From the NCBI GenBank assembly GCA_014905635.1, contig JABVCE010000034.1:248001-312000 (forward strand): DNA of 64,000 nucleotides, given 5' to 3'. Shown here in pieces: positions 2,547-46,400 of the stretch. The notes below the pieces were generated by a model. It worked only from the letters and a program-made list of their open reading frames with translations, was not told where the DNA came from and ran no database searches. Source of the stretch: Scenedesmus sp. PABB004 (Eukaryota). Each line of letters opens with the position of its first letter. Position 1 is the first letter of the stretch. Made by a program: the position numbers and the translations under genes.

Positions 2547-3889
2547 TCAGACCGTGATGCGCACGGGGCCGCCCTTGAAGAAGCCGGTCGTGACGGCGAG
2601 GTTGACGATCGTCACGCCCAGCAGCACGAGCACCTCGAGGCCGGTGTACCAGAACGTGCGCGCGTTGTTGCTTTGCTGCGCGCCGGGGCGGGGTGCGGCG
2701 GGGCGGCGGCGCGGCGGCGCGGCGCGCGGTGAGCGGCGCGCCGCCGCCGCGCCCCTCGCGCCGTGCCGCGCGCGGCGCCGCGGCGCGCGCGGCGCACCAC
2801 GGTCTTTATGTGGCGCTCGAGCTTGCGGTGGAGGTACTTTTGCTCGCCGGAGAGGATGTCGATGAGCTCGCCGACGACCATGACGTTGCGGCGCACGTCG
2901 TCGAGGTGGTCCTTGCTCGCGAGGTCCTTGCCCCTGGTGGTGGCACCGCGGCAGCAGCAGGGCGGCGGCGCGCGGGTGGGTGGGGGTGTGCGAATGTGTG
3001 TGTGTGGTGGGGGAGGGAGGGGGGGGTGTTTGGGCTGGAGGCGGTGCCCCCGCGGCGAGCGAGGGGGAACGCGGCCGCGGGCAACGCGCACGCCGTCGCC
3101 ACTGCCGCCGCCGCGGCACCACGCCCCGCGCGCCGCGCACCGCGTCTCGCCGGTGCCCTTGGGCACCTGCACCTGGCCCGGGCGGCGCAGGTGGCCGAGC
3201 GTAAAGTACACGAGGTCCGCCACGACGTCGACGTGGCTCTCAAACCCGCTGTACAGGCTGCGCCGCGTGGCAGCAGCGGCGGGGCACGCGCGTCGACGAC
3301 GCGCGCGCGCGCGGCCCCCGCTGCGGCGGCGGCGGCCGCGCGCACCAGACTTTGTACGTGCCCGGCCCGCGCGCGGCGATGTTGAAGTGCGCCTCGGTCT
3401 GCACGTTGTGCTGCGACCACATCTGGTCGCCCTGCGGGCTGTGCAGCTGCGGCGGCGCCGGCGTGCGCGGTCGGCGGCGGCGGCGCTCGAGCGCGGCGCG
3501 GAGCAGCGGCGGTTGCCGCTGTTGCCGCGCTGCGCCGCGCCGCCCTGCGCCGTCCGCAGGGCCGCACCCGCACGGTGACGGCGGGCACGTGGCCGGCAGT
3601 CCGGGGGGACACGAACAGCGCGCCCTCGACGCGCGGACCGCCGGGAACCTGGGGCGTGCGGATGGGGGCCATCAGACGCCGCCCCGCGCCCCCACGCCGC
3701 GCGCCGCGCCGCGCCCGCCCGCCCCCGGCGCCGGCGACGTGCCTGGAAGTGCTCAGACGAGATGGTCTCGGCGATGCACTCCGTCTTGCCCGGCGCGATG
3801 ACCACCTTGACGGCGCCGCTCCGCGGCGGCGCCAGCGCCAGCAGCAGCGCCAGCGCCAGGCAGCCGCCCGGCCCCGGGGTCCGGCGCAT
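2547..3889 (-). CDS. p24/emp24/gp25L (TMED) GOLD-domain cargo receptor; 6 exons
   Basis: Signal peptide MRRTPGPGGCLALALLLALA; GOLD-like VVIAPGKTECIAE...HFNIAARGPGTYKV; coiled coil EQKYLHRKLERHIKT; TM helix TFWYTGLEVLVLLGVTIVNL; tail FFKGGPVRITV*. Confidence 0.85.
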
Positions 3890-4115: not shown

Positions 4116-4618
4116 CGCGCCTGGGCCCCGCGCCGCGCCGCTGTGTAGCCGGCCATGCCTCCCGCGCCCGTGGTTCCGCGTCCGCCGCTGGGCCGCCGCC
4201 GCTCCGCCGGAGAGCGAGCAGGTCAAAGTCAAAGCCGGGGCGCCGTGCGGTGCGGCGGCGGCGGCGCGGCGGCACGGCGGCGGCGCGCGGCTCCTGCTCG
4301 TCCCGACACGCCCCGGTGGCGCCTGCTGCGCGGCGCGCAGGGGTTGGTGTGTGTGGACCGCGGCTGCTGTTGTGACGTCCGGGACCGGCACATGCGCCGC
4401 TTCGGCCGCCCGTTGCGGGGCGCAAACGAGTTGCGGCACCACGCCCGCGCCGCCCCCACCCGCGCACGCCGTCGCGGCAGTCCTGCGCGTTTGTGGCCGC
4501 GACCGCACGGCCATCACCGCGGCCACACCCTACCACGCAGGCGCGGGCACAGCGCACCACAGCGCCCGCCCGGGCGGTCGCAGGCACACCCGATCGACCC
4601 CCCGGGCGCCCGCAGCGG
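4116..4618. repeat. ~503-bp direct repeat, copy 1 (of 6268-6770)
   Basis: Base-by-base match at offset 2152 with about 5 substitutions seen; the ORF track shows duplicated translations (4155+ vs 6307+). Confidence 0.95.
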
Positions 4619-6267: not shown

Positions 6268-6770
6268 CGCGCCTGGGCCCCGCGCCGCGCCGCTGCGTAG
6301 CCGGCCATGCCTCCCGCGCCCGTGGTGCCGCGTCCGCCGCTGGGCCGCCGCCGCTCCGCCGGAGAGCGAGCAGGTCAAAGTCAAAGCCGGGGCGCCGTGC
6401 GGTGCGGCGGCGGCGGCGCGGCGGCACGGCGGCGGCGCGCGGCTCCTGCTCGTCCCGACACGCCCCGGTGGCGCCTGCTGCGCGGCGCGCAGGGGTTGGT
6501 GTGTGTGGACCGCGGCTGCTGTTGTGACGTCCGGGACCGGCACATGCGCCGCTTCGGCCGCCCGCTGCGGGGCGCAAACGAGTTGCGGCACCACGCCCGC
6601 GCCGCCCCCACCCGCGCACGCCGTCGCGGCAGTCCTGCGCGTTTGTGGCCGCGACCGCACGGCCATCACCGCGGCCACACCCTACCACGCAGGCGCGGGC
6701 GCAGCGCACCACAGCGCCCGCCCGGGCGGTCGCAGGCACACCCGATCGACCCCCCGGGCGCCCGCGGCGG
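6268..6770. repeat. ~503-bp direct repeat, copy 2; probable bidirectional promoter/5'UTR between the orphan gene and GYD1
   Basis: Ends 11 nt before the GYD1 ATG (6782) and starts 90 nt upstream of the orphan ATG (6177). Confidence 0.9.
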
Positions 6771-6781
6771 GCAGCAGCGGC

Positions 6782-9614
6782 ATGGTGCGGGGCAGCAGCA
6801 GCAAGGCGAGCGCGCGGCACCTCGCGCGCCTCGCCCGGGCGTACGCCGAGGGCGGCCGGTCAGCTGCTGGTGCCGTCAATGTGGGCGGCCTCGCGCGCCT
6901 GCCGGGCGGCGCGGGGCCGGCTGACGGCGGGCGCCTCGCCATCGCCCGGAAGGAGGTCGCGTCGCGCGCCATAGGTGCGTGCCGCGGCGCGTTGGCGGCA
7001 GGGGGCTGCCCCAGCGCCGCAGCCGGCGGCGCGGGGCCATCGGGCGGCGCGCCCGCGAGCGGCAGCGGCGGCGGCGCCGATGGTTGGCCGCGACGGCGAC
7101 CGCGCGGCGGAGCGGCGCCGCCGCGCCAGATCAGGCGCGGGGGCCCGCGACGGCCGTGACGTGGCGCCTCGTAGCTCGGGGTGGCAGGCAGCAGCTGCGC
7201 GGCAGCTGCTGTCGCACGCCAGCCAGCTCCGTGCGCCGCTGCAGCAGGCCGCGGCGGAGTGCTGTGCGCGGCAGCGGCCCGGGCGCCGTGCTGGCCAGCA
7301 GCCGCCCGCGGCCGCCGCCGCTCACGCGCCCCGCCCGGCGCGCCGCCCGCGCTCGCAGCGACGTCGTCCGCGGGCGCGCAGGCGCAGGCGCAGGCGGCCG
7401 TGAAGCTGGAGCAGGCGGTGGCGGTGGTGCCGGAGATCACGACCGACCTCTTCGGCGCGGTGTCGGCCGGCTGCACCGACGCCGAGGCGGGCGTGTTCAA
7501 AAACATCGACGGTGCGCGCCGCCGCCGGCTGCTGGAGGCGCGCTGGCGGGCGGCCGCTGGGGGCGCGCCGGCGCGGGGCGCAGCGGCGGGGCGCTCACCG
7601 CCGCGCGCTGACCGCGGCGGGCGCGCCGCGCCGCGCCGCGCCGCAGGTCACCGCCACGAGGACGGGCGCTACGCGGCGTTCCAGGCGGAGGTGGGCGCGT
7701 TTGTGGGGGCGGAGCGCCTCTTCACCGACCCGGTGCGCACGTTTGCCTACGGCACCGACGCGAGCTTCTACCGCCTAAACCCCAAGATGGTCGTCAAGGT
7801 GACGCAGCGGCAGCGGCGGGCGCAGCAGCGGCGGCGGGCCGCGCGCGGTGGAGCGGGGCAGCGGTGGAGCGGGGCAGCAGCGGCGCGCGCGCGGCGCGCG
7901 GCGGCGGCGCGGCGGCAGCGCGGCGGCGGCCGACGCGCCGCGCGCGGCTGCGCGCCCGCCGGTGCGCGCAGGTGCACAGCGAGGAGGAGGTGAAGCGCAT
8001 CCTGCCCATCGCGCACAAGCACGGCGTGCCCGTCACCTTCCGCGCCGCGGGTGCGGCCGCGCAGGCGGACCAGGCGGCGCGGCGCGGCGCGGCGCGGCGC
8101 GGCGGCGCGGTGCGGCGGAGTGCCGCGGCCCCGCCTGACCCGCCCCGCCCTCCCCCGCGCCGCGCCGCGCGCGCGCAGGCACGAGCCTGTCCGGCCAGGC
8201 GCTGTCTGACAGCGTGCTGCTCAAGCTGAGCCACACGGGGCGGCACTTCAGGAACTACACCATCCACGTGCGCACGGGCGCACCGCGCTGCCAGCGCGCG
8301 GCGGCGCACGCGGCGCACGCCGGCGCGCCGCAGCGGCGGCACGGCGCGCCTGAGCCCCGCTCCCGTGCGCTCCCCCCCTCTGTCCTGCGCGTGCGCGGCC
8401 GCGCAGGGCGACGGCAGCAGCATCACGGTCGAGCCGGGGCTCATCCTGGGCGAGGTCAACCGCCTGCTCGCGGGGCACGCGAAGCGGCACAAGCTGCCGG
8501 TGCAGTACAAGATGGGCCCCGACCCGAGCTCCATCGACAGCTGCATGATCGGCGGCGTCGTCGCCAACAACAGCAGCGGCATGTGCTGCGGCGTGAGCCA
8601 AAACACCTACCACACGCTCAAGGACCTCCGCGTCGTCTTTGTCGACGGCACCGTCCTCGACACCGCAGACCCCCACAGCCGCGAGTCCTTCCTCCGGGTG
8701 CGCGCGGCCGCGCGTGCTGTGCTGTACGCTGCGCGCTGCGCTGCGCGCGGCCAGCGCGCAAGCAGTGCGTGGCGGCTGCCCCGAGCTGGGCGCAGCGCTG
8801 CGCCGGCGTGTGCCCGCGCTGCGCGCCGACGCGCCCACCGCCCACCCGCCGCCGCGCCCGCAGAGCCACCGCGCGCTGTGCGACGGCGTGAGCGCGCTCG
8901 CGCGGTGCGTGCAGGCCGACCGCGAGCTGACCAACCTCATCCGCCGCAAGTTTGCGATCAAGTGCACCACCGGTGACCGCACCGCGCCGCCGCTGGCCGG
9001 GCGGGGGCCCGGGCCCGCCCGCCGCGCGCTCCCACACCACCCCCACGCGCGCACACCACGCGCAGCCTCACGTCCCTCCTCACTCCTCACTCTTCCTCAC
9101 TCATCCTCACTCTTCCTCACTTGTCCTCACTCCTCACCCCCCCCCCACCCTTAACCCCACCAGGCTACAGCCTCAACGCGCTCGTTGACTTCCCGGCCGA
9201 CGAGCCGATCGAGGTCATCAAGCACCTCCTCATCGGCAGCGAGGGCACGCTCGGCTTCGTCTCGCAGGCCACCTACAACACCGTGCCAGAGTGGCCCAAC
9301 AAGGCCTCAGCGTTCATCGTCTTCCCAGACGTGAGCCGGGGACGCGGCGCGCGTGGCAGGCCGCGGGAGGCCGCGGGGCGGGCGCGCGCGCGCGCGCGCG
9401 GGGCTGCGCGCGGCCGGCCGGCCGGCGGCAGCTGTCGCCGCGCGCGGGCGCCCGCCGACGCGCCGCGCGCGCTGTGCGCCCGCGCGCGCCGGCCCGCAGG
9501 TGCGCGCCGCGTGCCAGGCGGCGTCCATCCTGCGCGACGAGACGGCGGTGGACGCGGTGGAGCTGTTTGACCGGTGCGGCGCCCGTGCTGCTCTGCGCCG
9601 CCGCGCGCCGCCCA

Positions 9615-9667
<53 letters not shown>

Positions 9668-10199
9668 ACGCCGCGCCGCGCCGCCGCAGCGCGTCGCTGC
9701 GCGAGTGCGAGGCTGACGAGGACATGGCGCGCCTGGTGCCCGACATCCTCGGCGCTGACCCCATGGCCGCGGCGCTGCTCATCGAGTGCAGGCGCGCGGA
9801 CCGCTGCGGCCGCTGCCGCGCCGCGCACCTGGCCGCCTGGCCGCCTGGCCGCCGCCCCCGGCGCGCCCCCGCCCGCCGCGTGCGCTGAGCCCCACGCCGC
9901 CGCCGCCCGCTGGCCCCCTCCTGCCCGCCCGCAGGGGCCGCGACGCTGGCTCGCTGGAGGCCAACATCGACGAGGTCAACCGCGCGCTGCTGCGCCACGG
10001 GCTGCCGTTTGGCGCCAAGGCCGCGGCGCCGCAGCCGCTGAGCGCGTACCCCTTCAGCCACGACGCGGGGGTGCGTGTGTGTGTGTGGGAGGGGGGGGGG
10101 GCGCGGGGCCTGGGCCTAGGGGGATGTTCGAGGGAGGGGCACTGGCGCCGGCCCGGCGCTCCTCGCGCGCCGCCGCGCGCGCCCGCCACACCCACCCAC

Positions 10200-10239
<40 letters not shown>

Positions 10240-13200
10240 ACCACGCGCCCAGGTGTGCAAGACGTTCTGGGACGTGCGCAAGGGGCTCATCCCCATCGTC
10301 GGCGCCGCGCGCGAGCCGGGGACGAGCATGCTGATTGAGGACGTGGCCTGCCCCGTGGACAAGCTGGCAGACATGATGATCGACCTCGTGGACATGTTCC
10401 AGGTGCGCGTGTGTGTGTGGGTGTGCGGGTGGGCGGGCCAGAACAGCCCTGACGCCCGCCCGAGCCGCGCCGCGCGCGGGGCCCGGCGGCGGCGGCGCGC
10501 GGCGGCGCGCGCCCCCGGCCGGCGCCCCCCCCCCCCCCTCTCTGACCCCCGCCGCCCCCGCGCCCCCGGCCGCGCCCGTGCGCCAGCGCTACAACTACCA
10601 CGACGCGAGCTGCTTCGGCCACGCGCTCGAGGGCAACCTCCACCTCGTCTTCTCGCAGGCGCGCGGCGCACGCGGCGCCCACGCGGCGGCACGCGGCGGC
10701 CGCGCCCCCGCTGTGCCCGACCCCCTCCTGCACCCTCCCTGACCGCCCCGTCCCTAAACGCCCCCCTCCCTAAACCCTCCCCTAAACCCTCCCCTCAACC
10801 CTCCCCTCTACTGCCCCCCCCCCCCCCGCAGGGCTTCCGCACCAAGGAGGAGGTTCAGCGCTTCAGCGACGTGATGGAGGAGATGTGCCACATCGTGGCG
10901 ACCAAGCACAGCGGCAGCCTCAAGGGCGAGCACGGCACGGGGCGCAACGTCGCGCCGTTTGTGGAGATGGAGTGGGGCACCAAGGCGTACGAGCTCATGT
11001 GGGAGCTCAAGGCGCTGTTTGACCCGGGGCACGTGCTCAACCCGAGCGTCATCCTCAACAGGCGCGCGGCGGGGGCGCGGCGGTGTTTTGTGTGTGTGTG
11101 TGGGGAGGGGGGCACGGGGCGGGCGGCACGGGCCGCCCAGGTGCAGGCAGGGAGCGTGGCGCGCGGCACCGCGGCGGCGCGAGCGCCCGGTCCCCCTCCC
11201 CCCCGCCCCCGCAGGGACCCCGACGCGCACAAGAAGTTCCTCAAGCCCAGCCCCCTCGCGAGCGAGCTGGTGGACCGCTGCATCGAGTGCGGGTTCTGCG
11301 AGTCCAACTGCCCCAGCCGCGACATCACGCTCACGCCCAGGCGCGCGCAGCACGCGCAGCACGCGGCCGCGGCAGCACGGCGCGCACACAGCTCCCCCTC
11401 CTTCCCTGGGGGCCCTGCCGCGCCCGCGCCGCGCCCCCCCCCCCTCCCTCTTCACCCGCGCACGCCCCTCCTTACCCCGCCACACTCACCCCCCCCCCCC
11501 ACACACACACACAGGCAGCGCATCGCGAGCTACAAGGAGATCATGCGCCTCCGCGGCCTGCCCGCGCGCAGCGCCGAGCAGGAGGCGCGCCTCGCGGCGT
11601 TTGAGGGCGCGTACGCCTACGACGGCAACGCGACCTGCGCCGCAGACGGCATGTGCCAGGAGAAGTGCCCCGTCAAGATCAACACAGGCGCGCGCGCGCG
11701 GCGCGAGCGCCGGGGCGCCGGGGCGGGGCGGCGGCGGCTGCGGCGCCGCGCGCGCGGCGCGGGCGCTGGTGGCCGTGCCGCCTTGCCGCTCATGCGCCGC
11801 ACTGCCCGCCGCCGCACCACCACTGCCACCACCACCGCCGCCGCTATGACAGGCGAGATGATCAAGGCGCTGCGCACGCAGGAGATGGCCGACGCGCCGC
11901 GCGCCAACCGCCTTGCCGGCTGGGTGGCTGACAACTTTTCGCTGCTCAACGCCGCCATGCCGCGCGTGCTCAACGCCGTCGACCTCGCGCACAGGGTGAG
12001 CGCGGCGCGCCGCAGAGGCGGACGCGGGCGCGGCAGCCGTGGTGGCGCGGTGCCGCGCCGCCGCCCGCGCGCCGCGTGCGCGCCGCGCTCGCGCCGCGCG
12101 CGCGCCGCCCACGCGCTGCACGCCGCCGCCGCGCCGCGCCAGGTGGTGGGCCCCAAGCCGCTGGAGGTCGTGTCGCGCTGGCTCAACGCCGCGACGGGCC
12201 ACTTTGTGCCGGTGTGGAACCCCTACATGCCCCGCGGCGCGGCGCCCGTGGTGGCGCCGCCGCCGCCGGCGGTGTCGGCCGAGGGGCGTGGCGTGCCGCG
12301 CAAGGTCGTGTACCTGCCCTCGTGCGTGACGCGCATGATGGGCCCCTCGGGCAGCGACAGCGAGACCGCGAGCGTGCACGAGAAGCTGATGAGCCTCTTC
12401 GCCAAGGCCGGCTACGAGGCGCGCGCCGCGCAGCGCGCGCACGCCCACGCGCGCCGCGGCCAGCCCGCCCGCCCGCGTGCCGCCGCCCGCGCGCTCAGCA
12501 GCAGCCCTCCTAAACCCTGCCGCCCGCGCGCCGCGCGCCGCGCGCCGCGCGCCAGGTGGTGCTGCCGGCCGAGCTGTCGTCGCAGTGCTGCGGCATGATG
12601 TTCAACTCGCGCGGCCTCAAGGACGCCGCCGCGGCCAAGGGCGCGGCGCTCGAGGCGGCGCTGCTGTCGGCGAGCGAGGGCGGCAAGCTGCCGATCGTGT
12701 GCGACACGAGCCCCTGCCTCTCCCAGATCAAGGCCGGCATCAGCGACCCCGCGCTGCGCTTCAGCCTGTACGAGCCGGTCGAGTTCATCCGCCACTTCCT
12801 CGTCGACAAGCTCGAGTTCACAAAGGCGCGTGCGCGGCGCGCGCGCATGCACGGCACAGCGCGCGCGGCGCAGCACGCCGCGCGCATCACGCCGCTCGCG
12901 CCGCCCCGCGCGCGCCGCCCCGCTCACGCCGCACCCCCCCCCCCCCCCCCGGCCCCCCCGCGCCGCCGCGCACAGGTGCGCGAGAGCGTCGCGATCCACG
13001 TGCCCTGCAGCAGCAAGAAGATGGGCATTGAGGACGCGTTTGCCAAGCTCGCCGGCCTCTGCGCGGACGAGGTCGTGCCGAGCGGCATCCCCTGCTGCGG
13101 CATGGCGGGCGACCGCGGCATGCGCTACACCGAGCTCACCGGCGCGAGCCTGCAGCACCTCAACCTCCCGCCCGGCTGCGCCGACGGGTACAGCACGTCG

Positions 13201-13323
13201 CGCACGTGCGAGATGAGCCTGAGCAACCACAGCGGCATCAACTTCAGGGGCCTCGTCTACCTCATCGACGAGGCCACGCGCCCAAAGGCACCCGCGCCCA
13301 CGGCGGCGCCCGCGCAGGCCTGA
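6782..13323 (+). CDS. GYD1: Mitochondrial glycolate/D-lactate dehydrogenase (FAD-binding PCMH + FAD-oxidase C + 4Fe-4S + CCG domains); 20 exons
   Basis: Arg-rich presequence MVRGSSSKASARHLARLAR; DPVRTFAYGTDASFYRLNPK; GPDPSSIDSCMIGGVVANNSSGMCCG; GSEGTLGFV; GHALEGNLH; KGEHGTGRN; CIECGFCESNCP; CAADGMCQEKCP; CCGMMF; CCGMAGDRG. Colinear with Chlamydomonas GYD1 as recalled; all 19 introns join in phase. Confidence 0.95.
9076..9137 (+). repeat. Degenerate 10-bp tandem repeat (TCCTCACTCT-like) in GYD1 intron 7
   Basis: cactcctcac tcttcctcac tcatcctcac tcttcctcac ttgtcctcac tcctcac. Confidence 0.85.
9614..9667 (+). repeat. (CGCGCC/GCGCCC)n hexamer microsatellite in GYD1 intron 9
   Basis: About 8 tandem copies of gcgccc read directly. 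Confidence 0.85.
10752..10802 (+). repeat. Telomere-like CCCTAAACCCT units in GYD1 intron 13
   Basis: ccctaaac...ccctaaaccct cccctaaaccct cccctcaaccct. Confidence 0.6.
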
Positions 13324-15412: not shown

Positions 15413-16786
<1,374 letters not shown>

Positions 16787-20302: not shown

Positions 20303-21825
<1,523 letters not shown>

Positions 21826-22357: not shown

Positions 22358-24483
22358 TCACCCCGCCTTGCCGCCCTCGTCCGCGCCGCCGCCGGCGCCG
22401 CCGCCGCCCCAGTCCTTGATGCCCATGCCGGCCGCCTCGCGGCGCAGCACGTTCTCCCAGCGCGGCGGGATCTTGATCGACCCGTCCTCTGCAACGAGGT
22501 GCGGCGCGGGCGCGAGCAGCGCTGGCAGCTCGCCGCGCGACCCCGCGGCCAGCAGCGCGGCACGGTTGGAGCCGCCGCCCGCGGCGCCGCGGCCCGCGTC
22601 GCCGTGGACGTCAAAGTCGACGCTGCGGCTGGGGTCGGTCGGGTGGAGGCGCTGCAGGTTGGTGATGAGGCGCTTGATGCCCTGCGGAGGGCGCCGCCAG
22701 CGGTGACAGCGGCGTCGGCGGCGCGCGCACGGCAGCGCGGGGGGCAGCGCGCCGCGCGGGGCCGGCCCCGCAGCGCCCGCGCCCGGCGGCGCGGCGCGGC
22801 GCGGCGCGCGCCTGGAAGAACTTTCGCGTCGCCTCGTCGTTCATGATGTGCGCCTGGCTGGACGCGTTGGTGGAGTGGCTGATCTTCTCGCGCGCGCTGC
22901 GCTCGTGGATGCCGACGCTCGTCACGCCGATGGGCCAGGGCGCGTTGCCGATGGCGAGCTTGAGGTAGACGTCGTTGGCGGCGAGGTAGTTGCGGGACAC
23001 CATGTGCTGCACCAGCATCCACAGGCCAACCTGCGCGCCGCGGCGGCGGGGGGGGGGGGGGGGGGGGGGGGGAGGCGGCTCGGCGCGGCGCGGCGGGGCG
23101 CGGACGCGCCGGAGGGCGCCGGGGCGCGTCCGCGTGGCGCGGCGCGGTGCGCCGCGACTGCGCGCGCGCGCGCGCCTTGAGCTCCTGCTGCAGGCTGCGG
23201 CGCTCGAGCCGGTCGTAGAGGGGCTCCAGGTAGGTCATGCTCTGCTTGAACACCATCGTCGCCTGGCTGCCCTTGCCGCTCGCCTTGACCTGGCGGCGCG
23301 GCGCGGCGCGGCGGGGGCGCGGCGGGGGCGCGGCGGGGGCGCGGTGGGGCGCGGCGCCGGTGCCGAGCGCCGCCGCCGCCGCCGCCGTCCGGGCCGGGCG
23401 CCGGCGCGGGAGCTCGCAGCAGCCCCCCGCCGGGCGCGCCGCACCTCCTCGCTGCGCGCGTCGAGGTCCTCCTCCCACTCCTTGCACCAGCGGCGCAGGT
23501 AGCGCGCGATGCGGTCCTCGATCGGCAGGCTCTCCTCGGCGCGCTGCGCCGCCACCCGCGCCGCGGCCTCCTGGAAGGCAGCCAGCACGTCGTCGCCGCC
23601 GGCCGCGCCGCCGGCCGCGCCGGCGCCGGCGCCGGCGCCGCCGCCAGCGCCGCCGGCCGCCGCATCGGTGCCGCCGTCGCCGGGCTTGCCGCCGCCCGCC
23701 GGCCGCGGGCCCTCGCCCGCCGCGTCGCCCGGCTTGGCGCCCCCCGGCTCGCCGGCGCCGCCGCCGCCGCCGCCGGGGGCCTTGCCCGCCTTTGCGAGCT
23801 TCTCCGCGCGCTTGAGCGCGAGCATCACGTTCTCCTGCTGCCCCCCGCGCGCCTCGTCCACGAGCGACACGTTCTTCTCCACCTTGGCCAGCCGCGCCGC
23901 GCGGGCGGGGCCGTCCTCGCCGAACAGCGTCGCCGGCTGCCCCAGCGCGCGCAGGCGGCGGATGACCTCCTCGACCGGCAGCAGCGCCGCGCCGCCGCCG
24001 CCGCGCCCGCCGCCGTCCTCCGCGGCTGCGGCGCCACGCCCGCTGCCGCCGGCCGCCGCCGCGCCCGAGCCGGCCGCTTCGCCGCCCGCGCCGCCGCCGC
24101 CGCCGGCGTCCGTCGGCGCCGCCGCGCGGCCGCCGGGGTCGGCGGCGCCGCCGAGCTTGCGCTTCTTCTCCTCCTGCGGCCGTGGCAGCGCGCGGCGGTC
24201 GCGGCAGCGGCGCGTGGCGCCCAGGTGAGGCCCGGCGGCCGCTCGGCGCTGCTGCGGCCGCGCCCGCGCGGCGGCCGGCGCGCGGCGGCCGGCGTGGCGG
24301 CAGCAGCAGCGGCGGCGCCGCCGGCGCCGCCCCCACCTTTGCGCGCCGCTCCGCCTCCTCCTCCTCGCGCAGGCGCTTCAAGCGCGCCTCCTCCAGCTCG
24401 CCCTTGCGCACATACTTCTTGTCGCCGACCAGCTCCGCCTTCTCGGCCCGTCGCTGCTGCAGCAGGCGTCGCAGGTCGTCCAT
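22358..24483 (-). CDS. PRP18: Pre-mRNA splicing factor Prp18 (PRP4-like/SFM + Prp18 domains); 5 exons
   Basis: [95 protein letters not shown]. Confidence 0.95.
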
Positions 24484-25739: not shown

Positions 25740-28198
25740 TCAGCAAATCGTGCAAGCGCAGCCAGGTGCGGCGGAGTCGCTTTGTGCGTGCACGCCGCTG
25801 AGGTTGCTCTGCGTGCTGCCGGCGGAGGCCCTGCTGAGGCTGCGCCGCGTGCTGTCGGCGCCCGACAGCTCGTCGCGGAGCAAGTGCTGCAGGTCGCGCA
25901 CCACGCTGCTCATGGTGGGCCGCGCCATAGGCTCCTGCGCCCAGCAGGCCTCGATGAGCGCCCACACGCCGTCGCCGACGCGCTTGGGCCGGGCGGGGCG
26001 GTGGCCGCGCGCCACCTTGGCGGCGTACCTGCGGCGCGGCGCGGCGGGCGGCGAGGCGGTCAGCGGTGCGCCGCCGTGGCCTGAGCGGTGAGGTGGTGAC
26101 GCTGCGCAAGTGGCGTCGGCTGCTGCGCGGCGGCGTGGCGGCGTGCGGCCAGCCGCGCGCGCTCACTGCTCTGTGATGACGGGGTTGGTCGAGGACGTGG
26201 GCAGCTCGGTGAAGATGAGCAGGCAGCGCGCTGCGAGCTCGTACAGCACCACGCCAAAGCTGAACACGTCGGCCTTCTCGTTGTACGGCTGGCCCAGGAA
26301 CACCTCGGGCGCCATGTACATGCAGCTGCCCGTCTGGCCTGCGCCGCGGCGGAGGGGCGGCGCGGCGGCGCGGCGGCGGCTCAGCGCCGGCGGGGCCCGC
26401 GCACGCGGCTGCAGCGCGCGCGCCCGCGCGCGTCGCGCGGCGCCCCGCGGGCGCCGGCGCGGGCGGCGCCGCGCGCCTGTCATGGTGAACACCTCTTCGA
26501 CGTCAATCCAGCTGCCCGTGGCGTCGCTGGCGCCCTCGGCGCCGGCGTCGACGCGCACCGGCTCGCCCAGCCACGTGCCGCAGGTCATCGTGCTGTGCGT
26601 GCTGCGCTCCTCGTCGCCATACTTGGCGCAGCCCGGCGCCGCGAGGCCGCGCGACAGCACGCAGCCACCGTTGGCCGAGTCGTCCGCGCGCGGCGGCGCC
26701 TGGAACGACACGCAGCGCCGCGGCGGGGGGCGGCGCGCGGCCGCGGGCGCGCCTGCGCCCGGCTGCTCGGCCTCCGTCGGCAGCAGCGCCGCAAGCGCGT
26801 CGGGCGGCATGGAGTGCACGCATGCCGCCGGCGTCGTGCGGCCGAGGCTGCCGGGGCCCCGCGGCACGCTGCCGGTGCTGTCGTGCACGCGCGCCCAGCC
26901 CGCCACGCCGCCCAGCGCCTGCGGCGCGTCGGCGCCGTCGCGGTCGGCGCCGCCGACGGTGCTGCACGTGCTCGGGGCGCCTCCCCCCGCACGCGCGCCG
27001 CCTCCCAGGAGCTGCCGCTGCAGCGCCGCCAGGTGCTCCTGCGTGAGCTGGCACCACGCGCCCTCGCCCGACACCGACGAGGCGCGCGGCGTGACGGGGG
27101 CGCTGGCGGCGTAGAACGCCGACGCGGGCTGGCACCCGGGGGCAGCGGGCAGGCTGACGCGCAGCAGCTTCTCGCGCGTGCTATCGGCAGTCTGCGGGTG
27201 CGGGCCGCGGGGGCGGCCGGCCAGTTGGTTGGCGCCGCAGCCGCGCGCACCACGCGCAGAGCTGGCGGCGCCGTGCAGAGCTGGCGCCGCGTGGGCGGCG
27301 CCGGGCAGCCGCGCGCGCACCACGTGGAGGCCAAAGTCGCTGAGCTTGGCCACCGTCTGGCCCTCCTCTTTGGTGAGCATGACGTTGCCGAGCTTCACGT
27401 CGCGGTGGATGACCGCGGGGCTGCGCAGGTGGAGGTACTCGAGCGCGCTCGCGACGTCCAGGGCCCAGCCCAGCGCGTCGGCGTCGCGGTACACGCGGCT
27501 GCCGGGGGTGATCATGGCCTGAGAGACCTTCTCCTGCAGCGTGCCGCCCTGCGGGGGGCGCGCGGAGGCGCGCGGTCAGCAAGGCGGCTGGCGCCGCCGC
27601 GCGGCGTCACCCGGCGGGGCCGGCTGCTGGCCCCCGCGGCGCGGTGTCCCGCAGGCGCCGCACCTTGCAGTACTCGAGCGCGAGCGCCCACTTGCCGGCA
27701 TGGTTCTCGTTCTCGAGCTTGCAGAGCGCGCGGAAGCCGATCACGCGCCTGCGCGGGCGCGGGACGGGGGGCAGGTGCTCAGGATGAGCACCGGTGTGCC
27801 TGCGGGGCGCGGCGCCGCTGCGGGCGCACCGCGGCGCCGCTGCGCGCGCGTCCGCGCACCCGTGCTGGCAGCTGCTCAGCATCTGCGCCTCGCGCAGGAA
27901 CATCTTGACCTCCAGGCTGTCTTCGTCGCCGCCGCTGCTGCAGGCCTTGAAGGCCACCTCCTCGCCGTCGTAGAGGCCTGTGAGCGGGCCCGGAGAGCGG
28001 CGGGCAGGGCCGATCACGCTTTCCGGCCGCGGCGGGCGCCCGGCGTGGCTGCCCTCGGCGCGGAGGCCGGCAGGACCACGCGCATCACCGCTCAGGCGCC
28101 GCCAGCACCCCAGGCCCACCTCTGTACACAGTGCCAAACGCGCCAGCGCCTATCCGGTTGAGCAGCTTCACCTTGCGCTTGCTCGTGGGCCCCGCCAT
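25740..28198 (-). CDS. TKL/Raf-like protein kinase, paralog A, with a large activation-segment insert and C-terminal CaaX-like end
   Basis: IGAGAFGTVYRG; VAFK; LEYCKGGTL; IHRDVKLGN; KLSDFG; long insert; MTGQTGSCMYMAPE; KADVFSFGVVLYEL; CWAQEPMARP; ends GCACTIC*. Confidence 0.88.
25886..26460. repeat. Inverted repeat block B (matches ~30838-31410)
   Basis: Near-identical reverse complement including intron sequence; duplicated ORFs 26060- vs 31039+. Confidence 0.9.
27294..27696. repeat. Inverted repeat block A (matches ~29611-30012)
   Basis: Near-identical reverse complement, including the intron after LEYCK. Confidence 0.9.
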
Positions 28199-38055: not shown

Positions 38056-39331
38056 TCACAGCACCTTGGCCTCGTGCTGTAGCTTGTCCACCAGCTCCGC
38101 CACGCTGCCCAGCACCACGCCCGCGCTGCGCTGGGGCGGCTCCTCGACCTGCGGCGCAGTGCGGCGCGTCGGCCCTCGCGGCGAGCCAGCTGCCGCGGGC
38201 CCTCCCTCCCCTGCCTGCCCCGCGCGCTGGCGCGCCGCGCCGCACCCGCACGGTGACGAGCTGCGCCGCGCCGACGTCCACGCCCAGGTCTGCTGGCGTC
38301 GTGGCGGCGATGGCCTTCTTCTTGGCGCGCATGATGCCCGGCAGGCTCGCATACCTGGGAACGGCGCGGCGCGCACGCAATCCGGCGCGGGCTGGGCGCG
38401 CGGCCCCGCGCCGCGCCGCCGCCGTCCCCGCGCGCCGCCGCCGCCGTCCCCGCGCGCGCGCGTGCGCCCACACCCCCACGCACCGCGGCGTGTTGAGGCG
38501 CAGGTCGGTGGTGACCACCGCCGGCAGCGGGCACGCGACGCGCTCGAGGCCGCCGTCCACCTCGCGCGTCACGGTCACGCGCCCCGCGGCGCGGTCCAGC
38601 TCGACCTTGGACGCAAAGGTGGCCTGCGGCCAGTTGAGCAGCGCCGCCAGCATCTGGCCCTGCGGCGCAGGGCATGGGCGCCCAGGGTGGCGGCGTCGGC
38701 GCGTGGCGCGCCCCGCGGCCCCCGCGCGCCGTGCCGTGCCGCGCCGCGCCGCGCCGCGCCGCACCGTCTGGTTGTTGTCGCCGTCGATGGCCTGCTTGCC
38801 CAGCAGGCACAGCGCCGGCGCCTCCTGCCGCGCCACGGCTGCGAGCACGCGCGCGACGCACAGCGGCTGCAGCTCCGCCTCGCTCGCGACGTGGATCGCG
38901 CGGTCCGCGCCCATCGCCAGCGCCGTGCGCAGCGTCTCCAGCACCGCCGCGGGGCCGAGCGACACCGCGACGACCTCGTCCACCGCGCCCGCCTCGCGCA
39001 GCCGCAGCGCCTCCTGCGGCGTGGCGGCGGGCGCGGCGCAGCGCAGCGCTCGCGCGCGCCCCGGGCGCTGCGCGCGGGCTCCTGCGCGCGGGCTCCTGCG
39101 CGCCGGCCGCCGCACCTCCACCGCGATCTCGCAGAAGGGGTTCATGCTCATCTTGGAGGTGGACAGGTCCACCCCGCTCTGCGGCGACCGCGCCGGCGCG
39201 GCTGCGTGAGCAGCGGCGCCCGCGCCAGCACGCGCCGCTGCTGCGTCCGGGCCGCGCGCCTTGTCCGGCTTGATGCGCACGCGCGCGTTGTAGTCCAGCA
39301 CGCGCTTCACGGCCACCAGCACGCGCGACAT
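38056..39331 (-). CDS. ETFB: Electron transfer flavoprotein beta subunit; 6 exons
   Basis: [104 protein letters not shown]. Confidence 0.97.
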
Positions 39332-39714: not shown

Positions 39715-41571
39715 ATGCTGCTGCCGGCGGCGGCCGGCGCGGCGCAGGCGCGCGGCGCCGCGACGCTCGCGCGGCGGCTGCAGCGTGCGGCGGGCGCCGC
39801 GCCGCACCAGTCGCCGGCGGGGCCCTGGCGCGCCGCGGCGGCACGCGCCGCCGCCGCCGGCGCCGGCAGCAGCGGGGCGGGCGCGCAGGCGCCCGCGGCC
39901 GGCGCGGACGAGCAGCAGGCGGGGCCGCCGCATGTGTCGGTGCTGCTGGCGGAGGTGCTGGACGCGCTGAACCACATGCCAATCCGGGTGCGCCGCGCCG
40001 CTGGCGCGAGGGGCCCCGCGGGCGCGCAGCAGGCGCACGCAGGCGCGGCAGGCGCGGCTGGCGCAGCCCGCGCCGCGTCGCCCCGTCGCGCGCAGGTGTT
40101 TGTTGACTGCACGCTCGGCGCGGGCGGCCACACGGCGGCGATGGTGCAGCAGCACCCGGTGCGCGCGGCCGGCGCGCCGCTGCGCCGCGCGGCGCGCCGT
40201 GCGCGCATGCCCACGCCGCGCGCCGCCGCGGGGCAGGAGCTGGAGGTGGCGGTGGGCATCGACGTGGACCCCACCGCCCACGCGCTCGCGGACGCCCGCC
40301 TCGCGCCGCTCACGGGCGGGCCGGGGCAGCCGGCGCTGCGCCAGCTGCGCGGCAACTACAGGCGCGGCGCGGCGCGGCAGCGGGCGGGCGCGCAGCCGCG
40401 CAGGCGGCGCGGGGGCCCCGCGCGCGAGGCCGGCCCGCCCGCCCGCGCGCGCAGCGATGTCGCGTCGCTGCTGTCGGGCTGCGACGCGCCCGGCGGCGCG
40501 CTGGTGGGGCGTGTGGACGCGATGCTGATGGACCTGGGGGTGTCGAGCATGCAGGTGGGCGCCGCTTGTGGCAGAGTTTGTGCTTGTGTCGAAAGGGGCG
40601 GGGCTGGCCGCGCCGCGCCGCGCAGCGCCGCGCCGCTGCGGTCGCCTGCTGTGGCGCCGCCCGACCCCCCCCCCCCTCTCACGCCCCCCGTGCGCAGATT
40701 GACGAGGCGGGGCGGGGGTTTAGCTTCATGGCTGACGGGCCCCTCGACATGCGCATGGACCCCGGCGCAGCGCGCTCAGCAGAGGAGGTGCGCTGCGCGG
40801 CCGGCGCTGGGCGGGTGCCGGCCCCTCGGGCGCGCGCCCGCGCCCGATCGCGCCCGCCGTTTTGCGCCGCGGCGCAGCTGGTCAACGCCGCGCCCGAGGC
40901 GGAGCTGGGCCGCATCCTGCGGGACTATGGCGAAGAGAAGGCCTGGCGCGCGGTCGCGGCGCGGTGCGCCAGCACCAGCGGCACCCGAGGCCGCGCGGCC
41001 CCCGCACGGGCGGCAGCGCTGCCGCTCACGCGCCGCCGCGCCCGGCCGCGCAGGATCGTGGCGGCGCGCGAGGCGGCGCCGATCCGCACCACGCGGCAGC
41101 TGGTCGAGGTGGTGGGCCAGACGCAGCTGCGCGGCAGCGGCGGCGGCGCCAGGGGCCGCGGCGGGGGCGGGGGCGGGGCATCCACCCCGCCACGCGCACG
41201 TTCCAGGCGCTGCGCATCGCGGTGAACGACGAGATCGCCCGCCTGGAGCGGGTGCGGCCGGGGCGTGTGTGTGTGTGCGCAGGGGGGGGGGGGGGGGCAG
41301 CTGGCTCGCGGCGCGGCGCCGCCACTCCTCCACTCCTAAACCCTCCTAAACCTCGCCGCCCGCGGGCCGCGCGCAGGCGCTGCCGGCAGCGCTGGGCTGC
41401 CTGTCCCCCGGGGGGCGGCTGGCGGTGATTTCCTTCCACAGCCTCGAGGACCGCGCCGTCAAGCACGCCCTGCTCGCAGCGGCGGGCAGGCCCACGCCCG
41501 CGCAGGCACGCGCCCGAGCCCGCCCGCCCGCGCCGGCAGGCCGGTGCCGGCTGTCGCGCCGCGCCGCCCAC

Positions 41572-41602
<31 letters not shown>

Positions 41603-41880
41603 AGGAGGCGCTCGTGCACGGCCCCGACGGCTGGCGCGTGCTGGAGGCGCTGGCCGCGTCGGCGCAGGGCCGCGTCGTGACGCGCAAGCCGGTCGTGCCG
41701 GGCGGCGAGGAGACGGCAGCCAACCCGCGCGCGCGCAGCGCCAAGCTGCGCGTGTTCGAGAGGGCCGGCGGGCCGCCGGGCAGCGACGAGCGCGCGCAGC
41801 GCGGCGGCAAGCGGCAGCGCCTGCGCCGCGAGGCCGCGGCGGCCAGCGGCGCCGTGCCACGGGGCGGCGCAGAGGCGTGA
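39715..41880 (+). CDS. rsmH: Organellar 16S rRNA m4C methyltransferase RsmH/MraW (apparent 1-nt frameshift near 41175)
   Basis: [96 protein letters not shown]-terminal transit-like extension. Confidence 0.92.
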
Positions 41881-42172: not shown

Positions 42173-43244
42173 TCAGACCTTGGGCTGGATGACGCCCGCC
42201 TCGACCATGTAGGGCACCTCCGCCGCCATCCACGGCGCGAGGCCCAGGCACAGCGCGTGCGCAAAGCCAAAGTGGGGGCTGCGGCGGCGGCGGCGCGGCG
42301 GCGGCGCGGCGGCGGCGCGGCGGCGGCGCGTCGGCGGCCGCGCCGCGGCGCGCGCGTGCCCCGCGCGCGTGCCCCGCGCGCGCGCGCGCCTGTTCTTGGC
42401 CCAGAGCGGCTTGAAGTGGATGGTGAGGCAGATCTTGCCGCCGCGGTACATCTTGGCGGTCTTGCCCTCCAGCTCGGGCAGCTCGATCTCGGGCGCAACC
42501 GCGGGGTAGGTCGCGGGGACGTCAAAGCGAAAGTCAAACTCGTACTTGATGAAGTTGTGGACATACCTGCGCCCACCGCGCACGCCTGTGCGTCACGCAC
42601 GACGGGCGCGCCGCCGCCGCCCCCGGACCCGCGGCCGCCGGCCGCGGCCCCGACCCGGCCCCTGGCCCCGCCCGTGCCGCCGCGCTGCGGCGGCCCGCGC
42701 CCGCCGCGCACCAGCACTTGCCCTTCCACGCCTTGCCGCCGTCCTCGGGCGCGATGGTGAACCAGTCGGTGTCGCTGTCCTTGTTCATCTGGATGTACGT
42801 GATCAGCGCCTGCAGCTCCTGCGCAGCGACACACGCGGCGGCAGCGGGCGGCCGGCGGACGGCCGGCGGGCGGCTCTGGCGGTGGCGGCGGCGGCGGCGG
42901 CGCAGCCGCTGGCCGCGGGAGGGGCGCGGAGGGGCCGCTGCCGCCCACCGCCAGCTGCCGCCGCCGGCCGCGGGCCGCCGCTGCCGGGCCGGCGCCGCTG
43001 CCCGCTGCCGGCTGCCGGCTGCCACACCTGCTTCAGCCGCGCGTCCCACTTGTCCTTGGCATCGCGTGGCCCCGCGTTCTCCTGGCGCCGGGGCGCGCGC
43101 GTGGGCCGGCGCGCCGCGCGCAGGCGGTTGCTGTTGCGCCGCATCCGGCCGCTGCTGCGCCGCGGCGTGCGCCGCCGCGCCCCGCACCGTCAGCAGCGGG
43201 ATCTTCTGGACCGTCTGCCGCGTCTTGGGGTCCCACTCCGCCAT
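42173..43244 (-). CDS. UFC1: Ufm1-conjugating enzyme 1; 5 exons
   Basis: [105 protein letters not shown]. Confidence 0.98.
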
Positions 43245-43445: not shown

Positions 43446-46400
43446 TCAGTCGTCCTGCGTCAGGTCCACCACCTCCTCCGCCTGCTGTGACACCGGTGCG
43501 GGCGTGCCGCGCTGTCCGCCGGGCGCGGCCGCCGGCGGCGCGGCCGCCGGCGGGGCTCCCGCCAGCCGAGCGCGCCCGCCGCCGACGGCCGCGCTGCCGG
43601 CGCGGCCGCTGTCGCTGGTGCCGCGGCTGCCGCCGGCGCTGGGCGTGGCGCTGCGCCGGCGCTGTGCGACGGAGTCGAGCACCTCTTGCAGCCGGCGCGC
43701 CACGCTGACGCCCTCGTCCACGCGCGGCCGCTTGGCGAGCGGCTCGCAGCTGGGCGGGCCGCTCACCGGCGGCCGCGTGGCGCCGACCTGCGGCGGCTGC
43801 GCCGGCCGCTGGCCCTGCAGCTGTGGCTGCGGCACCTGCTGCCGCTGTGGCTGTGGCTGGGTCGTCTGCTGCTGCGCCGGCCGCTGCTGCGGCCGGGGTG
43901 GTGCGCTGGCGCGCGCTGCGTGCTGCGCCGCAGGTGGCGCCACCTGCGCCCGGTGCGCCGGCGCCGTCTGCGGCGTCGCCACGCGCTGCGCCGCCACCAG
44001 CTGCTCCACCCGCGCCGCCGCTTGGACCGCCATCCGGGCCGCCAGCTGCGCCGCCGCCTGCTGGTCGCTCTGGGCCACCCTCCTGAACCGCTCCACCTGC
44101 ACCGACAGCGGCGAGCCCCCGCTCGCCACGCCCTGGCCATGCAGCGGCTGCCCCGGCAGCGCCCGCTGCAGTGTCTGCTGCTGCTGTGCCTGCGGCGGCC
44201 GCTGCGGCTGCGGCGGCTGCGGCTGCGGCGCCTGCTGCGGCGACGGCGACGGCGCCCGCGGCGGCGGCTGCGGCTGTTGCGCCTGCAGCGGCGCCGGCGG
44301 CGCCGGCTGCGGCTGCGCCTCCTGGGCGGCGCCAGCCGCCTGGGTGTCGCCCGCCCCAGCAGCCGCCTCCTCCTCCTCCCGCAGCATTTGCGCCAGCACG
44401 CGCCTGACGTACCGGTCGCTCCGGTCGCTGCGCGCTGAAGGGGTCGCGCCGCCGGGCGCGCCACGCGCCCCAGGCGTGCCGCCGCCGAGCGCCGCCGCCG
44501 TGCTACGGCTGCGCTCCACCAGCAGCCGAGCGTTCTCAACCCTCGCAGCGCGGCGCTCGGCCTGTGATGGAAGGGGGGGGAGGCAGGGTGAGCGGCCGAG
44601 GCCGCGCGCAGCGCAGCGGCGCCGCTGCGCCCCCCCGACGCACCTTGTTGAGCTGCGAGGTGGGGTCCGCCTGCAGCTGCTGCTCCGCGTTCTTCAGCGC
44701 CACCACGCCCAGCGCTGCCACCGTGTCGGCCTGCGCAGCGCCCGCGGCGGCGGCGAGCGCGGGTCTGTGACGCCAGCGCCGGCGCGGGCGCGGGCGAGGG
44801 CGCGGGCGCGGTCGCGGGCGCGGGCGCGGGCGCGCACCTCGCCCAGCACTTGGCGCAGCACGCTGTCCTCCACGCCGGCTGCGCCGCCCAGCAGGTCGGC
44901 CGCGACCTCAGCCACGCGGTCGGCGCGCAGCGGGCGCAGCGGCAGCACGCAATACAGCGCCTCCTCGACGCTGCCCAGCGTCGCGCGCATCGCGCGCCGC
45001 TCCACCACGCGCTCAAACAGCTCCTGCACGCGCGGCCGCGCGGCGCGCGCGCGTGGAACGGTGACGGCGACGGCCGCCGCGGCGCGCGAGTTGGCGGTGG
45101 CGCAGGCGGCGGCGGCGGCGCGCGCCATCTTTGAGAGCGTGCGCTCGTGCAGGTGTGCCTCGATGGTGCCGGCCCAGACCAGCTGGTAGACGAAGCAGGG
45201 CAGGGCCTGGCCGTACCGCCACACGCGAGAGACGGCCTGCCGGTTGTGGACCGGGTTCCACGGCACCTGCGCCACGGGTGGGCGGCGCGCGGAGTGATGC
45301 GCGGCGGCGCGGCGCTCGGCGGGTCCCCGCGCAGGACCCCCCGCCCCCGCCGCCCTGTCGCTCTGTCGGGCGCGGCGCACGTCGTAGCAGACGAGGCGCC
45401 GCGCGGCCACGAGGTTGATGCCCACGCTGCCGGCGCGCGTGGAGATGAGGAAGACCTGAGCGGGCGTGCGGGGAGGGTCGAGGGGCGGCACAGGCGGCGC
45501 GTACACGCGCGTGCCGTGCGCGCGCGCGGCGCGGCGCCGTGCCTTGGCGCGCGGGCGCTCGCGGAACTGAGCGATGAGCGCGGAGCGCTGCTGCGGGCTG
45601 TGCTTGCCCTCGAGGCGCAGCACGTCGGCGCCGAGGACGTAGCTGAACTCACGCTGCAGCATGGCGCCCAGCGCGTCCAGGGCGGGCAGGCTCTGCCGCG
45701 CGGCGCGCACGGCGCGGCCGGCAGGGTCGGGCCGCGCGCCGCGGCGCCGGCGGCACGCGCCCACACCGCGCGCTCGCAGCGCCGCCCGCGCCCACACCGC
45801 GCGCCCGCGCCGCCGCGGGCGGGTCACCTGGCTGAAGATGACCACCTTCTCCCCCGCGCCCACGCACGCGTGCGCCACCAGGCTGCGCACGAACGCCTCC
45901 TTGGGCAGCAGCGGCAGCGGCGGCGCGGCGCCCTCGCCCGCGGCCTCGCCCGCGCCCTCGCCCGCGCCGCGCCGCGCGGTGAGGTCGGGCGGGTAGCGCT
46001 CCAGCAGGCGCTCCACCACGTCCAGCGGCAGCACAGCACGCTCCGCCGCCTTGCCGGCGGCGGCCGCGGCGGGGCCGGCCCGAGGCGGGCGCCCGGCACC
46101 GGCGCCGGCGCCGGCACGAGCGCTCGCGCTCGCGCCGCCCGTGGCGGGCGGCAGCTCGTCAGGCGGCAGCTCGTCCCCCAGCTGCGACAGCAGGATCTCG
46201 GGCCCGCCCGCACCGCCCGGCGCGCCCCCAGGCGGCGCGTGCGCGGGCGGGGTGCGCGCCTCGACGGCGATGAGCAGCTCCTCGCTGGCAGTCGCCATGA
46301 CCACGCTCACGCCAGGTGCGGCGCGCGCGCGCGCCGCCAGCTTGGACAGCGCCGCGTAGCCGTGGTCGGACGAGTCCAGCACCTTGCGCATTACCTGGCG

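Follow-up and report, generated by a model that had tools for sequence, protein, structure and literature searches.

How does a nuclear gene of a green alga yield a continuous, conserved protein if seven of its 19 introns begin with GC instead of GT? The question is raised by a glycolate dehydrogenase gene (GYD1/glcD-type, here GYD1) in a stretch of 64,000 nucleotides (nt) of Scenedesmus sp. PABB004 (assembly GCA_014905635.1, contig JABVCE010000034.1, positions 248,001 to 312,000 of the forward strand), which I call the window and within which all positions below are counted. A first reading of its letters, referred to here as the original prediction, had proposed that introns of the GC-AG kind are very frequent in the window and that their donors obey an AG/GCGCG rule, where the slash marks the boundary between exon and intron. 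The results below come from the DNA, from protein homology and from my own gene modelling, and they show that GC donors truly form part of the gene structures, that they are frequent and that they are bound by a context rule. The setting is extreme in composition. The PABB004 genome is reported to have 39.8 Mb, 78.5% GC and 7,092 genes, about half the count in related genomes (PMC12571836); GC content is 73-82% in every 2-kb bin of the window, and the introns reach about 86%.

The gene and its GC-AG introns, each supported by the model and by homologues, are as follows.

6782..13323, plus strand: GYD1, glycolate dehydrogenase (GYD1/glcD-type), 20 exons and 19 introns, 7 of them GC-AG
9792..9934, plus strand: GYD1 intron 10, GC-AG, cag/GCGCGCGG
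10659..10831, plus strand: GYD1 intron 13, GC-AG, cag/GCGCGCGG
11062..11214, plus strand: GYD1 intron 14, GC-AG, cag/GCGCGCGG, splitting an AGG Arg codon
11341..11514, plus strand: GYD1 intron 15, GC-AG, cag/GCGCGCGC
11688..11852, plus strand: GYD1 intron 16, GC-AG, ACA G/GCGCGCGC
12419..12555, plus strand: GYD1 intron 18, GC-AG, gag/GCGCGCGC
12826..12975, plus strand: GYD1 intron 19, GC-AG, aag/GCGCGTGC

The joined exons comprise 3333 nt and encode 1110 amino acids (aa) without an internal stop. Their translation is letter for letter that of database protein P0001, named glcD (Scenedesmus sp. PABB004) at NCBI, and the exon at 8407-8697 alone is 100% identical to the 1110-aa database protein. 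The depositors' annotation therefore uses the same junctions, the seven GC ones included. Furthermore, all 19 junctions are gapless against 16 homologues, across highly conserved residues such as LLIECRG, VFSQGFR and TPRQRI; these homologues include MMETSP, TSA and Trinity transcript-derived proteins as well as the Chlamydomonas orthologue P0024. If GC donors are forbidden, the best model of the gene has 1047 aa and its scores against four homologues fall from 1541-1840 to 1343-1637 bits, a loss of about 200 bits. Gap openings, 2-5 in the full model, then number 9-12, and gap columns grow by 77-82 per homologue to reach 82-107 (5-30 in the full model).

The original prediction had named these same seven donors, at exactly the positions that they occupy in the 20-exon model, and had said that each follows an exonic AG, begins GCGCG and leaves no GT within reach by sliding. 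Reading the model bears out all three points. The GT nearest to the donor at 9792 lies 6 nt upstream, and its use would remove the conserved residues C-R. Shifts of -8 to +8 that preserve the mRNA give a GT-AG placement for none of the 26 GC donors modelled in the window (the set is described below). All 26 introns thus begin with GC and end with AG with no equivalent GT-AG placement, every modelled acceptor being AG by construction, as the model allowed no other acceptor dinucleotide. The GYD1 introns also contain a C run of about 45 nt (10196-10240, plus strand) and tandem CCTCACT-like repeats (9070-9130, plus strand).

GC donors are not confined to GYD1. At all 15 other sites claimed in the window the letters read AG/GC on the strand given or, at 45125, TG/GC. 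Homology confirms the donor at eight of these sites and a paralogue supports it at a ninth, so that a validated set of 16 GC donors can be assembled, 15 by homology (seven of them in GYD1) and one by the paralogue. Those outside GYD1 are listed here with their evidence.

15995..16120, minus strand: PLPBP/YggS gene, GC-AG intron, aag/GCGCGGCA; read-through alignment to 1ct5_A, continuous within 1 residue, and also found ab initio
20610..20719, minus strand: RPN11 gene, GC-AG intron, cag/GCGCGCGG; the two flanking exons cover 8amz_V residues 165-207 and 209-309, and the codon split at the 20719 junction is residue 208
23031..23175, minus strand: PRP18 gene, GC-AG intron, aag/GCGCGCGC; gapless in 13/13 homologues, Pfam Prp18 positions continuous
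22682..22811, minus strand: PRP18 gene, GC-AG intron, cag/GCGCGCGC; gapless in 12/13 homologues
26339..26476, minus strand: kinase A gene, GC-AG intron, ACA G/GCGCGCGG; paralogue support
39179..39259, minus strand: ETFB gene, GC-AG intron, aag/GCGCGCGG; in-frame read-through against human ETFB 2a1t_S (5-26, 27-47, 47-134)
40362..40454, plus strand: RsmH-like gene, GC-AG intron, cag/GCGCGGCG; gapless in 11/11 full-length homologues
41506..41604, plus strand: RsmH-like gene, GC-AG intron, cag/GCACGCGC; gapless in 3/14 rows (P0244, P0272, P0258), the other rows being variable there
42279..42389, minus strand: UFC1 gene, GC-AG intron, cag/GCGCGCGC; Pfam UFC1 positions 66-123, then 125-155

The RsmH-like exon directly before the intron at 41506 (41377-41505) carries the FHSLEDR motif. 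A search of the last PRP18 exon against PDB gave no PRP18 match.

How frequent are such donors in the window as a whole? I modelled it region by region with a dynamic-programming gene finder that weighs codon usage against a Markov model of introns. The finder was trained on this window, its donor matrix on GT donors only, and GC donors were admitted at a tunable penalty. With a penalty of 9 nats (about 8000-fold) it chose 25 GC donors among 135 introns, and with 3 nats 47 among 145. By hand, one false intron was dropped (41112-41206) and two skipped exons were restored (3568-3648 and 41377-41505), which leaves 26 GC and 110 GT donors, 136 introns in all, and a GC share of about 19% (18-32% depending on the penalty). 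At least 22 GC donors had been claimed; at the 9-nat penalty 21 of the 22 are kept, and the 22nd is lost with an exon that the finder skipped. In a control that also offered ten decoy dinucleotides as donors at the same penalty, GC was picked 24-25 times and CG 2-3 times, while none of the remaining decoys exceeded three picks; decoys were thus chosen about tenfold less often than GC, the background frequencies of CG and GC in the window being nearly equal (0.174 versus 0.21). The further claim that GC-AG introns far exceed the usual 1-2% also stands, at about 19% in this window against 2.1% (532 GC-AG versus 25053 GT-AG) among introns of Chlamydomonas mapped with expressed sequence tags (PMC2846911 Table 2).

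The GC donors differ from the GT donors well beyond their second base (+2). Comparing the 26 with the 110, C stands at -3 in 62% versus 35%, A at -2 in 92% versus 35%, G at -1 in 96% versus 80%, G at +3 in 81% versus 95%, C at +4 in 96% (25/26) versus 57% (63/110; p=7e-5) and G at +5 in 100% (26/26) versus 85%. An exonic AG stands before 24/26 GC donors, compared with just 35/110 in the GT class (p=1e-8), and in the validated GC donors it is found in 16/16 (p=1e-7). As had been foreseen, many GT donors (75/110) do without the exonic AG, and the GC donors do without an AAGT-type sequence at +3 to +6. Among donors of the form AG/GYGCG (Y being C or T), 19 have C at +2 and 15 have T; where the exonic AG is missing, the counts are 2 for C and 42 for T, and in AG/GYGAG donors 0 for C and 4 for T. 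The first eight intron bases are GCGCGCGG or GCGCGCGC in 14 of the 26 GC donors. The AG/GCGCG context rule is real, and it is stricter than the original prediction stated.

That prediction went on to suggest that 5' splice sites may be defined differently in this lineage, through a variant U1 or U6 (taken up below) or through heavier reliance on pairing on the exon side or on intron structure. Reliance on the exon side holds, GC donors matching CAG at -3 to -1 in 2.50 positions on average compared with 1.51 for GT donors (p=6e-7); a role for intron structure is not supported, as the two classes differ neither in the energy of an end-to-end duplex (-29.3 kcal for GC and -26.7 kcal for GT introns, p=0.44) nor in minimum free energy per nt (p=0.87). 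At the acceptor the classes are alike: both have CAG/G, with C at -3 in 96-98% and G as the first base of the following exon in 64-81%. None of the modelled introns has a T-rich tract on the acceptor side (T is 2-13% at -10 to -4). GC content is somewhat higher in GC introns than in GT introns (88.3% versus 85.5%, p=0.008).

The exonic A runs counter to codon usage in this genome. Across the 3685 codons of nine well-modelled genes, A is the last base in just 1.6%, and AGR accounts for 7.0% of the codons for Arg; nevertheless, AGG is the codon split by 5/6 phase-2 GC donors and ACA precedes 2/3 phase-1 GC donors. Rare codons (AGG, ACA) thus supply the exonic A, which is held against a third-position bias of 98% GC, and this is synonymous-site evidence for selection on the A at -2.

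A pair of paralogous kinase genes allows the two donor types to be compared at one intron position.

30819-30957, plus strand: kinase B gene, GT intron, ACG G/GTGGGCGG; paralogue of the kinase A intron 26339..26476, at the same position and in the same phase

Over 137 nt the identity between these introns is 93%, and their donors (ACA G/GCGC in kinase A, ACG G/GTGG in kinase B) differ at -2, +2 and +4; therefore exon and intron positions changed together. The genes themselves are inverted, head-to-head paralogues (25337-28198, minus strand, and 29106-31522, plus strand), and in both the activation loop is enlarged by an insert of about 240 aa. Blocks of about 100% identity (approximately 27330-27700 with 29580-29980, and 25960-26460 with 30840-31340) alternate with regions of 43-65% identity, a pattern that suggests gene conversion between the two.

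What, then, could make GC donors so common here? I favour, at a probability of roughly 0.68, the reading that these are U2-type GC-AG introns, common through a GC-biased change of T to C at +2 and tolerated in donors that otherwise have the full consensus. Strong GC-biased substitution pressure, in a genome of 78.5% GC, would turn the T at +2 into C; the C would survive only where all other donor positions fit the consensus of the lineage, (C)AG/GYGCG; and the exon-side AG, together with G at +3, C at +4 and G at +5, would offset the lost contact at +2. The T-to-C direction, GC pressure as the cause and removal by an unaltered spliceosome are parts of this reading that I infer.

Such compensation has a precedent. 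In mammals, GC donors are described as having the rest of the signal closer to the consensus, compensating the T-to-C change at +2, the general donor consensus being GT(A/G)AGT, complementary to U1 (PMC2490688). In the window, too, the remaining donor positions are nearer the consensus in GC than in GT donors, the consensus being the local one, and the near confinement of C at +2 to donors preceded by AG is as expected if that C is a defect in need of compensation. The PABB004 introns thus resemble ordinary U2-type GC-AG introns in their GC donor, their AG acceptor and the better fit of the remaining donor positions. However, in animals and plants such introns are reported at under 1-2% (PMC2490688, PMC3167603), so that their frequency in PABB004 is about 10-20 times higher. 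Furthermore, the compensating bases are GCG at +3 to +5 and not the general (A/G)AG, with weight placed on the exon-side AG.

Enrichment driven by GC content is the simpler reading, and it is one already published for other algae but absent from the original prediction. In Emiliania huxleyi, 56-65% of donors are GC, verified by reverse transcription PCR and Sanger sequencing and ascribed to a genomic GC content of 65% (PMC4028052). The pelagophytes Aureococcus and Pelagomonas have 14-17%, while a relative with low GC content has 0.32%, and there too the authors attribute the shift to GC content (bioRxiv 10.1101/2024.10.30.620910). PABB004 resembles these algae in its GC-rich nuclear genome (evident both in the bins of the window and in the published figure), in canonical AG acceptors and, within this one 64-kb window, in many GC donors (14-65% of introns in those algae). 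Unlike them, it is a chlorophycean green alga with a GC content higher still (78.5%), and its share, about 19% in one window, is below the 56-65% of Emiliania. The strict AG/GCGCG rule and the rare-codon signature come from the present analysis of PABB004; the available text of the Emiliania and pelagophyte accounts contains no such rule.

Several points weigh against the GC-driven reading. The GC introns of Emiliania and the pelagophytes are verified at the RNA level, whereas those of PABB004 are known from DNA, homology and gene models, splicing at the GC sites being deduced from protein homology and coding potential. The T-to-C direction is presumed; a metagenome scan for orthologous loci returned 77, nearly all about 3 kb long for about 1000 aa and therefore intron-less or cDNA-like, the few longer ones being just 47-48% identical. 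The sample is 64 kb of a 39.8-Mb genome, so that the share is that of one window; the genes checked in full were those already flagged for GC donors; and roughly 100 of the 136 introns come from a gene finder trained on the same window. Finally, A stands at +4 in only 1/26 GC donors as opposed to 29/110 GT donors (p=0.016), whereas compensation toward the U1-complementary consensus would predict more A at this position; both the excess of C and the shortage of A at +4 therefore count against it.

It is this last point that gives the leading alternative its force. The 5' end of U1, or the region of U6 that pairs with the donor, may have changed, so that C at +4, and perhaps at +2, is read positively and not merely tolerated. 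For C between two Gs the dinucleotide frequencies of the window lead me to estimate a neutral expectation of about 59%, and against this estimate the 25/26 found at +4 makes that C look favoured in GC donors. Moreover, all six variable positions move toward the local CAG/GYGCGC and away from the general consensus. Nevertheless, 81% of donors retain GT, the near confinement of C at +2 to donors with the exonic AG is that of a defect needing compensation, and A at +4 makes up 26% of GT donors, above an intron background of 7%. The 2.1% share of GC-AG introns in Chlamydomonas, a member of the same class (PMC2846911), also speaks against an altered U1 or U6. On balance I regard such a change as unlikely, but it is the rival with most in its favour. 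A search for Rfam families gave no matches in the 64-kb window, and no snRNA (small nuclear RNA) gene lies within it.

Chlamydomonas is instructive in its own right. The genome of Chlamydomonas reinhardtii has a GC content of about 64%. The two algae belong to the same class, and the Chlamydomonas orthologue P0024 is gapless at all GYD1 junctions, but the GC-AG shares of 2.1% there and about 19% in the PABB004 window set them apart.

Could the C at +2 instead be an artefact, that is, a systematic error of base calling or assembly in place of T, or the product of wrong gene models? The assembly probably does hold at least one homopolymer indel, in the frame of the RsmH-like gene near 41160-41182. 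There the reading frame shifts in a G-rich run (window 41100-41215, plus strand), and homologues demand that '...VGQTQL...GGG' pass straight into 'IHPATRTFQ', with no space for an intron. The likely cause is either an assembly error of 1 nt in the homopolymer or a real frameshift. However, 110 GT donors were read as T, 63 of them in a GTGCG context, and the window contains 31 copies of AGGTGCG. Errors would not be expected to follow the exonic AG (p=1e-8) or the choice of rare synonymous codons, 15 sites are fixed by homology, and the depositors' P0001 has the same seven GC junctions. I consider an artefact very improbable.

Equally improbable is a separate class of introns, either recent introner-like elements or introns defined by a secondary structure that joins their ends. 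The uniformity of the first eight bases in 14/26 GC donors is what one might expect of such a class, but an all-against-all BLASTN comparison of the 136 introns recovers no GC-specific family: the strong pairs are the kinase paralogues only, and matches of 70-75% join GC and GT introns alike, as expected for a sequence of essentially two letters. GC and GT introns do not differ in length (130 versus 135 nt), share the same CAG/G acceptors and, as given above, do not differ in duplex or folding energy. U12-type introns were rejected, as 0/26 GC donor strings hold the ATCC of the RTATCCTT-like motif described in PMC2846911, a study whose Table 2 lists no U12 spliceosome found in Chlamydomonas.

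The remaining GC donors of the window are candidates. Six of those claimed in the original prediction (3742, 15752, 45542, 45125, 61686 and 62673) have ab initio support, and four more, absent from its list, were chosen by the gene finder at the 9-nat penalty, all four in unconserved regions.

3649..3742, minus strand: p24/GOLD gene, candidate GC-AG intron, cag/GCACGTCG; reading frame and coding potential only
15662..15752, minus strand: PLPBP gene, candidate GC-AG intron, cag/GCGCGACG; ab initio only
45456..45542, minus strand: SNF2-type helicase gene, candidate GC-AG intron, aag/GCACGGCG; ab initio, the downstream exon mapping to the helicase C motif
45024..45125, minus strand: SNF2-type helicase gene, candidate GC-AG intron, atg/GCGCGCGC; exonic TG, not AG; ab initio
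61686..61778, plus strand: kinase-like gene, candidate GC-AG intron, gag/GCAAGACA; A at +4, as in no other GC donor; ab initio only
62673..62785, plus strand: kinase-like gene, candidate GC-AG intron, cag/GCGCGGCT; ab initio, the downstream exon matching kinase Pfam positions 166-258
39748..39888, plus strand: further candidate GC-AG intron, cag/GCGCGCGG; ab initio, 9-nat penalty
34352 (plus strand), 46259 (minus strand) and 51363 (minus strand): three further candidate GC donors; ab initio, 9-nat penalty

The donor at 45125 is the main exception to the AG rule. Alignments of the exon upstream of it to Rad54 and ATRX chains extend as far as the last residues of that exon, and no PDB chain matched the exon downstream; a PDB search with the exons that flank the donor at 45542 found no match either. 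A homologue search with the SNF2-type protein gave a single match, of 38% identity, aligned just to the N-terminal half of the helicase. In the p24/GOLD gene the intron 3649..3742 is followed by an 81-nt exon (3568-3648, minus strand; VPGGPRVEGALFV...) that sits within a stretch called by the gene finder as one 296-nt intron, and the exons around this intron had no Pfam match. Short exons are easily missed in such base composition; a Pfam search of 14 short exons at E-values up to 10 added almost no matches.

A few other features of the window deserve mention. Unlike those of GYD1, the exons of PRP18 (22358-24905, minus strand) and of the SNF2-type helicase gene (43446-48121, minus strand) have no identical database protein, and the public annotation may lack or mis-model both genes. 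Two genes for splicing factors lie in the window, PRP18 and a U1A/U2B''-like protein with two RNA-recognition motifs (549-2059, minus strand); neither protein reads the donor site, and they therefore have no bearing on the GC donors. A direct repeat of 393 nt with 99% identity (approximately 4116-4508 and 6268-6660) lies within two long 'introns' predicted on the minus strand, in a region where the gene models are poor.

As a kind, the phenomenon is known, and the GYD1 junctions themselves already stand in the public annotation through P0001. The new details are the explicit AG/GCGCG rule and the puzzle of the C at +4. A literature search, with most subscription journals outside its scope, turned up no account of GC-AG introns being frequent in green algae or in PABB004.

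The practical consequence is that gene finders limited to GT-AG introns would get about one intron in five wrong here, or overlook it. Under the GC penalty my own finder skipped a real exon, and the first gene models of Emiliania are reported to have suffered likewise from the GT-AG assumption (PMC4028052). If U1 or U6 has in fact shifted toward G-Y-G-C-G, that shift would have left its footprint in the near-invariant C at +4, and PABB004 would offer a rare case of a core spliceosomal RNA co-evolving with genome composition. On the favoured GC-driven reading, the link between GC content and GC-AG introns is extended from haptophytes and pelagophytes to green algae. The window also provides a natural experiment on how much 5' splice-site information a spliceosome needs: in the full AG/GYGCG context it makes little difference whether +2 is T or C (15 versus 19), whereas without the exonic AG the C is almost excluded (2 versus 42).

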